Shown here: piece after piece, positions 36,878-59,920 of the stretch | Numbering within the stretch: the stretch's first letter is position 1 | How the letters are laid out: each line of letters begins with the position of its first letter | From: a virus | Lineage: Duplodnaviria > Heunggongvirae > Uroviricota > Caudoviricetes | Reading direction: 5' to 3' (one strand) | DNA length: 64,000 bases | IMG/VR virus record: IMGVR_UViG_3300003310_000099 | Location: 234,295-298,294 of that record | The notes under the pieces: generated by a model | Told to the model about the DNA's origin: nothing | Databases searched by the model: none | Seen by the model: only the letters and a program-made list of their open reading frames with translations | Translations under genes and position numbers: made by a program

Positions 36878-37969
36878 ATGAAAACTCGCAGCAAGACGGT
36901 TGAATTGGTTAAGGAAGGTCATTTCGACAAAACTACGTTGAGTGGGCAGCTAGAGCGGATCATCAAAAAGGGCATTAGTCCCACGTTGCATAAGCAAGGG
37001 TGGACGTTCGTTCCGCCTGAGTTTATTGACAACATGAATATGACTATTGCCAAGATTCGTCTTTTGAAGAAGATGAAGCGTGAGCGTGAAGGCTCTGATG
37101 AAGTCTTTGCGCGTCAATCCGAAGAAGTTTTGCAGCGAATGGCAGTATTCTGTCGTGAATCCAACTGGTCCTTTAAGGACGCAGCAATTGAGAATAAGGT
37201 TTGTCCGAAACAGAATTTTGATTTCCCAATGCCCGAAGAAATCAAGCCTTATTTCGGGCACATTTATGATCGTGATGCGCATATTCGCCTGATTTATAGC
37301 TCTTTGAAGGCTGCTCAGGCGAGCGTGTTTGAACAACGCAATCATTGCCTCTTGTGGGGCAAGCCTGGATGTGGTAAAACCGAAACTGTTTTGAGTTTCG
37401 AGAAGATGGTAGGTGCCCAAAATGTAATCAAATTGGACGCTACTTCCACTACCAAGGCAGGTGCAGAGAATCTATTGCTGGAGTTGGACGTAGTACCGCC
37501 AATTCTTCTGATTGAAGAGTTGGAGAAGTGCAACCCATTGAATTTGCCGTGGTTGCTGGGCATCCTAGACCAACGTGGCGAGATTATTAAGACTAATGCA
37601 CGCATCGGCAGTCAGCGGAAGTCTGCTAAGTGTCTTTGCATTGCAACGGTTAATAATCTCCATGAATTGACGAATATGATGAGCGGTGCCTTGGCGTCCC
37701 GTTTCCAACATAAGATTTATTTTCCACGTCCCAATCGGGCGATTTTGGAAAAGATTCTTTTGCGGGAAATTGTCAAGGTGAAGGGCAATGAAGCGTGGAT
37801 CAAGCCGATTCTGGATTATGTTCTGGAAATCGAAAAGGTGAATGATCCACGTCGGGCTATCTCTTTGCTGGATGGCCGCGAGAAGTGGCTGACGAACGAG
37901 TACAAGGACGATTTGATGGCGGTGCGTGAAGCAATGCACACTGACAATGTAGAGTTGCCAGATAACTAA
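36878..37969 (+). CDS. AAA+ ATPase
   Basis: GKPGCGKT, ILLIEELEK, ATVN, ALASRF. Confidence 0.85.
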   Translation: MKTRSKTVELVKEGHFDKTTLSGQLERIIKKGISPTLHKQGWTFVPPEFIDNMNMTIAKIRLLKKMKREREGSDEVFARQSEEVLQRMAVFCRESNWSFKDAAIENKVCPKQNFDFPMPEEIKPYFGHIYDRDAHIRLIYSSLKAAQASVFEQRNHCLLWGKPGCGKTETVLSFEKMVGAQNVIKLDATSTTKAGAENLLLELDVVPPILLIEELEKCNPLNLPWLLGILDQRGEIIKTNARIGSQRKSAKCLCIATVNNLHELTNMMSGALASRFQHKIYFPRPNRAILEKILLREIVKVKGNEAWIKPILDYVLEIEKVNDPRRAISLLDGREKWLTNEYKDDLMAVREAMHTDNVELPDN

Positions 37970-56167: not shown

Positions 56168-56629
56168 ATGAACACTTACGAAGTCACTCCTATCGCCCGT
56201 GAACTCATGAATCAGCATGGCCTTGGCCACTGGACCTTCCAGTATGATCGGGCCAAACGTCGTGCAGGTTTGTGCCAACATCGTCGGCAGACTATCTCCC
56301 TCAGTGTGAATTACGTTCATCGTAATGACATTGTGGATATCAAGGACACCATTCTTCACGAAATCGCCCATGCTCTGGTTGGCCCTGGTCATGGCCATAA
56401 TAATGTCTGGAGAGCGATGTGCGTCAAGATTGGTGCAAAGCCTCAACGGTGCTGCGGTGAGCATGTCGATATGCCCAAGGGACGTTGGCAGGCTCTTTGT
56501 CGTGGTTGTGGTAAAACCTTCCACAAGCATCGTCGTCCCAAGTATATGACTGGAACTCATTGCCGTAAGTGTGGGCCAGTCTTGGGCGCTCTGGTTTGGG
56601 GTGGTGGATATGTCGAAATACAGGGGTAG
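56168..56629 (+). CDS. SprT-like zinc metalloprotease
   Basis: RRAGLC, HEIAH, GH..W, C-terminal zinc ribbon. Confidence 0.85.
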   Translation: MNTYEVTPIARELMNQHGLGHWTFQYDRAKRRAGLCQHRRQTISLSVNYVHRNDIVDIKDTILHEIAHALVGPGHGHNNVWRAMCVKIGAKPQRCCGEHVDMPKGRWQALCRGCGKTFHKHRRPKYMTGTHCRKCGPVLGALVWGGGYVEIQG

Positions 56630-58728: not shown

Positions 58729-58995
58729 ATGGATTTGCCGAAGCTGAAAGATTATGGCAATTCGCCTTCGACCCGATTCCTGAATATCGGACCCGTTACG
58801 GTCTGGTTCAGTTATGAAACGCCTATTGCGTTTCGTGTGGACGGTGGACCGCAACGAGTGCTGGACTATAAGGGCAGTCGCACCACTTTCCGCCATCTGA
58901 ATATGATTGATGGCGGCAATAAGGATGCTCGTCTGTCTCAGACTGAATTTCAGAAGCTGTGGGAAAAGGAAGTGGTGCTGAGGGCGAAAGCTTAG
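58729..58995 (+). CDS. hypothetical phage protein
   Basis: WFSYETPIAF..SRTTFRHLN. Confidence 0.7.
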   Translation: MDLPKLKDYGNSPSTRFLNIGPVTVWFSYETPIAFRVDGGPQRVLDYKGSRTTFRHLNMIDGGNKDARLSQTEFQKLWEKEVVLRAKA

Positions 58996-59006
58996 CTGTA
59001 CCAAGT
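58991..59006 (+). promoter_or_regulatory. element copy 29
   Basis: exact core; precedes non-coding cassette. Confidence 0.8.
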
Positions 59007-59011
59007 GATCT

Positions 59012-59149
59012 GAGCGGAACGTTGCTCTCCGCTATATAAGACAGAGCAACTTAGTCGGTGGTAAAGGCTTCGAGCCGTGACACTGGATGACAAAAGCCTC
59101 TGTGGTAATGAATCTGAAATCGCTGGTTTGATCCCAGCCAGAGGCGACA
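59012..59149 (+). ncRNA. candidate ncRNA: 5' pseudoknot + tRNA-like acceptor/T-arm domain
   Basis: AGCGGA/TCCGCT and GTTGCTC/GAGCAAC; GCCTCTG/CAGAGGC with GCTGG-TTTGATC-CCAGC. Confidence 0.65.
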
Positions 59150-59153
59150 AAAG

Positions 59154-59169
59154 CTTAGCTGTACCAAGT
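59154..59169 (+). promoter_or_regulatory. element copy 30
   Basis: exact core. Confidence 0.8.
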
Positions 59170-59206
59170 AGTTTGTTCCGACACTGATAACAAAGGGGAG
59201 AACAAA

Positions 59207-59920
59207 ATGGCAAAGAAGAATGACCGTCCGACGTTTGCAGTTCCTCAAGCAATTCTGCCGTCCGTTGAGCGATTCATCGCTGCAAAGCAAGTCGCTGAAA
59301 TGGCCGAAAGCCGTATGAAGGCCGAGGAAGGCATCGTCAAGGAAACCATGATTGATAGCTTTGCGGAAAGCATCGTCAAGCTGCGTTGCAAGCCCACCAA
59401 TCCGCGTATGACCATCGCCAAGGATGGTAAACCCGATATTGAGTGCTTGTTCCAAGTTCAGTCCAAGTTCTATCCCCAGGCCGCACAAGGGGATGGACCA
59501 GTCAGCGAACGCCTCAAGGCTGCTTTCGTTGCCGCTGGTGTCTCTGACGAAACCGCCGATAAGCTGCTCAAGTTTGAAGTGGCTTGTGAAGATAAAACCA
59601 CTTTGCGACCATTCAGCGAATTGATGAATGGTGCGCCCGTTGAGCAAGAATTGGCTGGTCGGGTTATGAAGCTCTTACTCGAAAACTTCACCGATCAGGA
59701 ACGCGCTTTGATCCTCCAACCAAGTGAGAAGATCGAAGTCAAGGATGGTTTCTTTGAACGCCTTGGTATGTACGTCAAGGATAAGGCGGAAGCCTTGGCT
59801 GCGATTCGGGTTATGAAGCCTGTTAGCTTTATGTCTCACATGAAGCTGGGCCTCAGTGAAACGCCGCAAGGTCGCCTCAACCGCCTCTTTGAGTACGCCA
59901 AGAGCATGATTTGTGGCTAA
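59207..59920 (+). CDS. hypothetical protein
   Basis: SD GGGGAG; followed by terminator. Confidence 0.75.
   Translation: MAKKNDRPTFAVPQAILPSVERFIAAKQVAEMAESRMKAEEGIVKETMIDSFAESIVKLRCKPTNPRMTIAKDGKPDIECLFQVQSKFYPQAAQGDGPVSERLKAAFVAAGVSDETADKLLKFEVACEDKTTLRPFSELMNGAPVEQELAGRVMKLLLENFTDQERALILQPSEKIEVKDGFFERLGMYVKDKAEALAAIRVMKPVSFMSHMKLGLSETPQGRLNRLFEYAKSMICG

Follow-up and report, generated by a model that had tools for sequence, protein, structure and literature searches.

A 163-bp unit between two copies of a phage promoter, within a 64,000-nt stretch of huge-phage DNA (the window), probably specifies a real and functional small RNA that ends in the acceptor and T-arm half of a tRNA. The explanation we favor, with a confidence that falls just short of even, is that a small non-coding RNA, processed as a tRNA end, is the product of this cassette, which would thus be a working gene. 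The initial annotation, made from the letters of the window and their open reading frames, had suggested a tRNA-mimicking small RNA or a processing signal at this place, and that suggestion fits the evidence presented here.

The window comprises bases 234295-298294 of a 373,404-bp IMG/VR record (41% G+C), in which ARAGORN predicts 58 tRNAs, none of them inside the window. The record is part of a 596,394-bp JGI contig, Ga0071082_100015; a 6.7-kb piece was compared and is identical to the window. The "provirus" label and 98% completeness attached to the record could be artefacts that arose when a huge phage genome was trimmed.

What drives the cassette? A 16-bp element, CTTAGCTGTACC(G/A/T)AGT, occurs 111 times on the + strand of the record and twice on the - strand. 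Since its copies lie nearly always at gene junctions, it behaves as a phage-specific promoter. Against an expectation of 0, the window contains 30 matches to the promoter 20-mer, and the 12 related contigs that we examined carry the same promoter or a one-base variant of it; in a viral contig collection, the promoter pattern gave single chance matches only. A logo of the 111 copies shows W at -4, A at -2, an invariant core from position 1 to 11, and A14, G15 and T16. Downstream of the core, position 21 is a pyrimidine in 101 copies and position 22 a purine in 105. This arrangement points to transcription starting 22 nt from the first C of the core and to many mRNAs being leaderless or near-leaderless. 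The start proposed for the cassette in the initial annotation, G59012, agrees with both preferences.

The cores that flank the cassette occupy 58991-59002 and 59154-59165 (Table 1). The TAG of the first promoter doubles as the stop codon of the upstream DUF8033 gene, while the second promoter drives the gene for a 237-aa protein. In the interval from 52 to 64 kb, no + strand terminators were found above chance; read-through is therefore expected, and RNA ends must come from processing. Among the small cassettes, one (window 56168-56629) encodes a 153-aa protein of the SprT-like metalloprotease family (PF10263, E 1.7e-11; phrog_1006).

Table 1. Positions of the cassette, its parts and neighbors, and of tRNA-shaped or otherwise folded RNAs and a tRNA enzyme in the phage and its relatives (window coordinates unless the record or a related contig is named).
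Feature	Position	Strand	Remarks
Upstream neighbor, 88-aa DUF8033-type gene	58729..58995	+	phrog_5643; PF26096 on homologues in relatives
Promoter heading the cassette	58987..59006	+	AAAG + CTTAGCTGTACC + AAGT; 111 + strand copies in the record, core invariant
Predicted transcription start	59012	+	G, position 22 counted from the first C of the core
Candidate H-type pseudoknot	59013..59050	+	S1, AGCGGA 59013-18 with TCCGCT 59028-33 (6 bp); S2, GTTGCTC 59021-27 with GAGCAAC 59044-50 (7 bp)
Second hairpin, with internal loop	59051..59090	+	Lower stem 59055-60/59081-86; upper stem GGCT/AGCC 59066-69/59073-76; apical loop 59070-72
A-rich spacer CAAAA	59091..59095	+	Precedes the expected RNase P cut (predicted at 59095/59096); invariant in L170
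Anticodon-less mini-tRNA	59096..59146	+	Partial match to RF00005; sole minihelix in the record; acceptor stem GCCTCTG 59096-102/CAGAGGC 59139-45 (7 bp); linker 59103-21; T-arm 59122-38, stem 59122-26/59134-38, loop 59127-33
3' trailer ACA and next promoter	59147..59169	+	AAAG + core 59154-65 + AAGT; trailer short, not conserved
Downstream neighbor, 237-aa gene	59207..59920	+	Directly after the cassette in both genomes that have it
tRNA-Leu(UAA)	same promoter array		54.9 bits
Mini-tmRNA, 140 nt	record 305082-305221		About 6.8 kb past the window end; Rfam 49.8 bits, above the tmRNA cut-off
Odd tRNA-like RNA, GUA anticodon loop, aberrant D region	record 305326-305409		Missed by ARAGORN; 25 bits with tRNA-Sec
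Odd tRNA-like RNA, 94 nt, "tRNA-???", T-loop AGCGTAA	record 305860-305953		Homologue in L161:5188-5260
Class-II nucleotidyltransferase, 505 aa	record 332642-334159	-	PolyA_pol head and RNA-binding domains
RNA X	L164:2991-3096; L165:560-659; L166:666-767; L170:108-225; L160:3365-3504; L168:2522-2568		Conserved folded non-coding RNA

That the 163-bp unit contains no credible ORF, as first noticed, is confirmed. Its + strand frames are limited to one of 36 codons, which begins with GTG and continues across the next promoter, and one of 14 codons, which begins with ATG. Coding potential was rejected for the latter, which has no SD and whose only change in the homologue described below is non-synonymous. 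Protein searches with the spurious antisense ORF of the cassette and for truncated copies of the 237-aa gene were both empty. The stems, hairpin, T-arm and linker originally described for the unit are all present. Folding energy of the whole 144-nt RNA is ordinary (z -0.35).

Is the resemblance to a tRNA genuine? The 7-bp acceptor stem adjoins a T-arm reading GCTGG/TTTGATC/CCAGC, with a 5-bp stem and a 7-nt loop, and 19 unpaired nt stand in place of the D and anticodon arms. The discriminator is G59146, followed by ACA. In the RNA, the T-loop UUUGAUC retains U54, U55, G57, A58 and the G53-C61 pair, with U in place of C56. Rfam and ARAGORN were among the tools proposed for checking the tRNA-like domain. 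RF00005 aligns with the mini-tRNA at 24.7 bits (E 0.0053 in E-value mode; 4227 families, 361-nt search), through the acceptor stem and T-arm only and with the D and anticodon arms deleted; this score lies below the gathering cut-off of 29, as does that of the minihelix in the homologue (26.3 bits). Rfam at gathering thresholds finds nothing across the window, and ARAGORN calls no tRNA or tmRNA at the cassette.

We scanned both strands of the 373-kb record for a 7-bp stem adjoining a 5-bp stem closed by G-C, with a loop TTNRANN and a linker of 8-35 nt. The cassette is the only site, against a mean of 0.05 in 20 shuffles; with tRNA-sized linkers the same scan yields 50 sites. The uniqueness of the minihelix and its RF00005 match together show that the tRNA half recognized in the initial annotation is real and tRNA-derived. 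Between the end of the minihelix and the extended consensus of the following promoter lie 3 nt, an arrangement also seen at the genuine tRNA genes of the array.

Several other identities were rejected. The acceptor stem is common to none of the 58 ARAGORN tRNAs, which argues against a paralogue of a phage tRNA. A tmRNA would show G3.U70 where the cassette has the pair C3-G70, and neither Rfam nor ARAGORN matches a tmRNA at the cassette. For a riboswitch-type element, Rfam in E-value mode offers the partial tRNA match only. A Y RNA was set aside given the absence of a TROVE gene (PF05731) from the 373-kb record and of the GNCGAAN0-1G motif from the cassette; SmpB and RtcB genes were likewise not found in the record. 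An antisense regulator was dismissed, as the cassette RNA has no complementarity above chance within the 373 kb.

Upstream of the minihelix, the RNA would open with a candidate pseudoknot, followed by a second hairpin capped by GGCT(TCG)AGCC (59066-76). The pseudoknot loops of 2, 0 and 10 nt are compatible with the usual H-type loop-length rules. By itself, either stem contributes about -8.3 to -9.8 kcal/mol, and a nested alternative exists in an 8-bp hairpin (59021-28/59043-50). A rough estimate gives about -14.5 kcal/mol for the pseudoknot versus -10.2 kcal/mol for the best nested fold. Perfect 6+7-bp H-type pseudoknots arise in shuffles about 1.1 times per strand per 373 kb, so the chance of one in the 89-nt leader is about 3e-4, for parameters chosen after the fact. 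Other perfect 6+7-bp candidates on the + strand lie at window 37220-37260 (record 271514) and at record 302255-302296; the latter lies in a long palindrome, for which chance mir-3149 matches were obtained as well. Formation of the pseudoknot in the cassette RNA is sterically and energetically plausible and rare by chance, and we regard it as possible, though somewhat doubtful.

A single homologue of the cassette was found. By blastn against 170 loci it was found only in L170 (Logan ERR14788461), a 1166-bp metagenome contig, where it is 95% identical over 139 nt; a search of a phage collection gave no match. Four exact 20-26-nt patterns from the cassette had 0 matches in the viral contig collection, and two patterns had 0 matches in a genome contig collection, which makes it less likely that the cassette derives from part of a host tRNA gene, as in an attP site. 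The order in L170 is RNA X (described below), promoter, cassette homologue, promoter and 237-aa gene.

Comparison of the two copies shows that the RNA body (59012-59145) differs at 6 of 134 nt and is thus 95.5% identical. The adjacent 237-aa gene has 79% DNA identity, with 22, 8 and 117 differences at codon positions 1, 2 and 3, respectively. Its third positions differ in 117 of 238 cases (49%; Fisher p 1e-21 versus the RNA body) and its 5' UTR at 8 of 37 nt, again more than the RNA body (p 0.003), while its first and second positions together (30 of 476) are similar to the RNA body. The conserved block starts a few nt past the promoter element and ends at the last acceptor pair; the discriminator and next three bases read G-ACA in the window versus A-CCU in L170.

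The six differences spare the proposed structure. In the candidate pseudoknot, S2 is invariant between these two sequences and one S1 pair goes from A-U to G.U (A59018 to G). Two bases of the apical loop at 59070-72 change from TCG to TTA, the sole changes in the second hairpin. Within the mini-tRNA, G59105 to A is the sole change across the 19-nt linker, C59133 to T falls in the T-loop, and A59142 to G makes a U.G of an acceptor U-A pair. All 38 proposed pairs are kept in both copies, both stem changes giving G.U; compensatory (double) changes between the window and L170 are absent from the 38 pairs. An exchange through the promoter repeats would have carried the flanks along, and the flanks have diverged, so we read the pattern as that of an RNA body probably under purifying selection. 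From two sequences a mosaic history is also possible, and the identity with L170 could come from more recent common ancestry of a short segment in mosaic genomes.

The promoter copy of L170 has T at the nearly invariant G15 and lacks 4 nt between the core and stem 1, and autonomous transcription of the cassette there is uncertain. As a result of the missing 4 nt, a start at promoter position 22 falls inside the 5' strand of S1 and leaves 3 of its 6 pairs. The start may be flexible, the RNA may also be supplied by read-through, or S1 may not be essential.

The interval from the DUF8033-type gene, its conserved left border, to the 237-aa gene (window 58995-59207; homologous in L160-L171) is a hypervariable slot, filled by different promoter-bounded cassettes in different phages. 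Eight related contigs carry a 113-aa-type gene, a terminator-like hairpin and RNA X in this slot, and two carry small ORFs only. This suggests, from the sequences compared, that cassettes are gained and lost by recombination at the promoter repeats. Our cassette is absent from 10 other related contigs, in which the slot is otherwise filled or skipped, and is therefore dispensable in the lineage. A full tRNA in the slot of relatives, named in the initial annotation as evidence that would count against its reading, was found in none of the related contigs. The 237-aa protein on the right has 38 homologues in metagenomes (52-93% identity); no Pfam or PHROG family was found for it, and its AlphaFold model (pLDDT 78) has no PDB fold match.

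The first element of RNA X is a hairpin, CCACTTAGCTAGTGG, similar to the promoter core. RNA X shows compensatory changes in two variable hairpins, pairing is conceivable between its loop ACGGGG and a 3' CCCCG, and no Rfam family matches it. Both RNA X and the 113-aa gene are absent from the 373-kb record.

RNA genes of the array share one layout: a promoter, a leader that often contains a hairpin, a tRNA-shaped RNA, 2-6 nt, and the next promoter. Besides a tRNA-Leu(UAA), the phage has a mini-tmRNA in which about 270 tmRNA model positions are replaced by 37-38 nt, and which also occurs in a relative (L164:1712-1849, 55.2 bits). Two odd tRNA-like genes each sit in their own promoter cassette. 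CCA is encoded in none of the phage tRNA genes. The 505-aa nucleotidyltransferase has about 150 extra N-terminal residues, and its best NCBIfam match is the CCA tRNA nucleotidyltransferase, below the equivalog cut-off.

How might the cassette work? A non-coding RNA of about 134 nt (59012-59145) would be transcribed from its own copy of the phage promoter and, with no terminators in the array, would be made both alone and within read-through transcripts. RNase P and CCA-adding enzymes are known to need no more of a tRNA than its acceptor/T-arm helix for recognition; this coaxial half, to which the 3' 51 nt of the cassette RNA correspond, is recognized by 3'-trimming enzymes too. [quoted passage not shown] On these two grounds, RNase P would cut the cassette RNA at 59095/59096, the 3' trailer before the next promoter would be trimmed, and CCA would be added by a host enzyme or by the phage's own class-II nucleotidyltransferase. 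The predicted products are a structured 5' RNA of about 84 nt, containing the pseudoknot or a hairpin and then the second hairpin, and a 51-nt minihelix. Such processing would uncouple upstream transcripts from the downstream gene. Two details speak against this scheme. The predicted RNase P site is preceded by A, where U is the preferred nucleotide, and the T-loop has U at the position at which tRNAs have C56.

Could the minihelix itself be the effector? It might serve as a decoy or sponge and capture a factor specific for the acceptor/T-arm half of tRNAs, with the 5' structures only stabilizing or delivering it. Such a factor could be, for example, a host defence toxin that attacks acceptor stems or the 3' ends of tRNAs, or an enzyme that modifies or processes tRNAs. 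Conservation of a tRNA-derived fold, the almost invariant single-stranded linker and the heavy investment of the phage in tRNA functions (58 predicted tRNAs, the mini-tmRNA and the CCA-adding-type enzyme) all agree with such a role. We nevertheless consider it unlikely: the differing discriminator and tail mean that no fixed aminoacylation-type identity is kept, no partner gene was found, the 237-aa neighbor being without family or fold match, and the cassette is missing in most relatives. Anticodon nucleases, proposed as targets in the initial annotation, are excluded, because a decoy for them does not fit an RNA that lacks an anticodon arm. In a bolder form of the idea, the cassette belongs to a repertoire of promoter-driven, tRNA-shaped, non-decoding RNAs that are swapped between slots, and its pseudoknot/mini-tRNA composite represents a new class of phage effector RNA, not a mere processing mark; we hold this to be quite unlikely. 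That its other members, in a lineage of roughly 600-kb phages, are the mini-tmRNA, both odd tRNA-like genes and, in relatives, RNA X is a similarly long shot, and it is just as speculative that the composite would, for example, inhibit or decoy a host factor recognizing the acceptor/T-arm half of tRNAs.

The conserved sequence could also lack any function of its own. The cassette would then be neutral, the remnant of a tRNA gene from which an internal deletion removed the D and anticodon arms, and near-identity with L170 would reflect a recent segment exchange. The hypervariability of the slot, the bounding repeats able to recombine, the presence of the cassette in 2 of 12 related contigs only and the T-loop that departs from consensus with U at position 56 are what one would expect of it. 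However, exchange through the repeats would carry the whole sequence between cores, yet the nucleotides just after the core and the 3' trailer have diverged around a body that has hardly changed. Moreover, all six body changes fall in loops or keep pairing, and the conserved block also spans an 84-nt leader that is not tRNA. A decayed tRNA, one of the suggestions of the initial annotation, is thus improbable, given how well the body is conserved next to a gene that differs at about half of its third codon positions. We judge equally improbable a cis-acting leader, in which read-through from the cassette promoter would let the folded RNA tune stability or translation of the 237-aa gene mRNA. 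The cassette does lie directly upstream of that gene in both genomes, with no terminator in between, and the same position in relatives holds another conserved folded RNA, RNA X. But a complete promoter and an SD dedicated to the 237-aa gene follow the cassette, that gene is expressed without the cassette in most relatives, and a tRNA-like end placed as in real tRNA genes points to cleavage and not to a continuous leader. Processing of a small RNA at a tRNA-like end is the reading that we retain.

What would such a gene mean? Selection apparently maintains in this phage a promoter-driven RNA in which a copy of only the enzyme-recognition half of a tRNA is joined to other folds. If this RNA is indeed cut and finished by tRNA-processing enzymes, tRNA mimicry would be a general phage means of defining RNA ends in terminator-free arrays; alternatively, it would be a way to engage tRNA-binding host factors. 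Large tRNA sets are a known trait of huge phages, and annotation pipelines report nothing beyond the calls of tRNA finders. If our reading is true, a layer of phage small RNAs is being missed by current annotation. The immediate impact is modest, as the phage is uncultured and two copies of the cassette are known.

Which known RNAs does the cassette resemble? Compared with canonical tRNAs (RF00005), it has the acceptor, T-stem and T-loop features but lacks the D and anticodon arms and scores below 29 bits. It shares with the tRNA-like domain of tmRNA, and with acceptor/T-arm minihelices, the stack of a 7-bp acceptor stem and a 5-bp T-stem, capped by a T-loop of 7 nt, but unlike tmRNA it has no G3.U70, tag frame or helix 2. 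Like the Y RNA YrlA, which in M. smegmatis is cleaved by RNase P and receives CCA (PMC4201824), it is a non-coding RNA that combines a tRNA-like module with other stems. It differs from YrlA in architecture and in having no D-arm mimic, no GNCGAAN0-1G motif and no nearby Ro/TROVE gene within the 373-kb record. The cassette is thus a member of none of these three classes, tRNA, tmRNA or Y RNA. An anticodon-less phage mini-tRNA has no Rfam family, and none was found in the literature searched.

In the t-elements of plant mitochondria and in mascRNA at the 3' end of vertebrate MALAT1, a tRNA-shaped, non-decoding fold terminates another RNA, and the ends are defined by the tRNA 5' and 3' processing enzymes. 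The cassette is similar in that its minihelix ends a structured RNA at a transcript boundary, here in a terminator-free array. It differs in that t-elements and mascRNA keep a cloverleaf-like shape with an anticodon-like arm, whereas the cassette has the acceptor stem, T-arm and 19-nt linker only; RF01684 (mascRNA) is not among the four Rfam matches at E up to 10. The cassette is also found in a phage, has its own promoter, and its cleavage is predicted. By analogy, it would work most like such tRNA-like processing modules. Its new features are a promoter of its own, a structured leader that is conserved and may form a pseudoknot, and its occurrence in a phage of about 600 kb with swappable tRNA-shaped RNAs.
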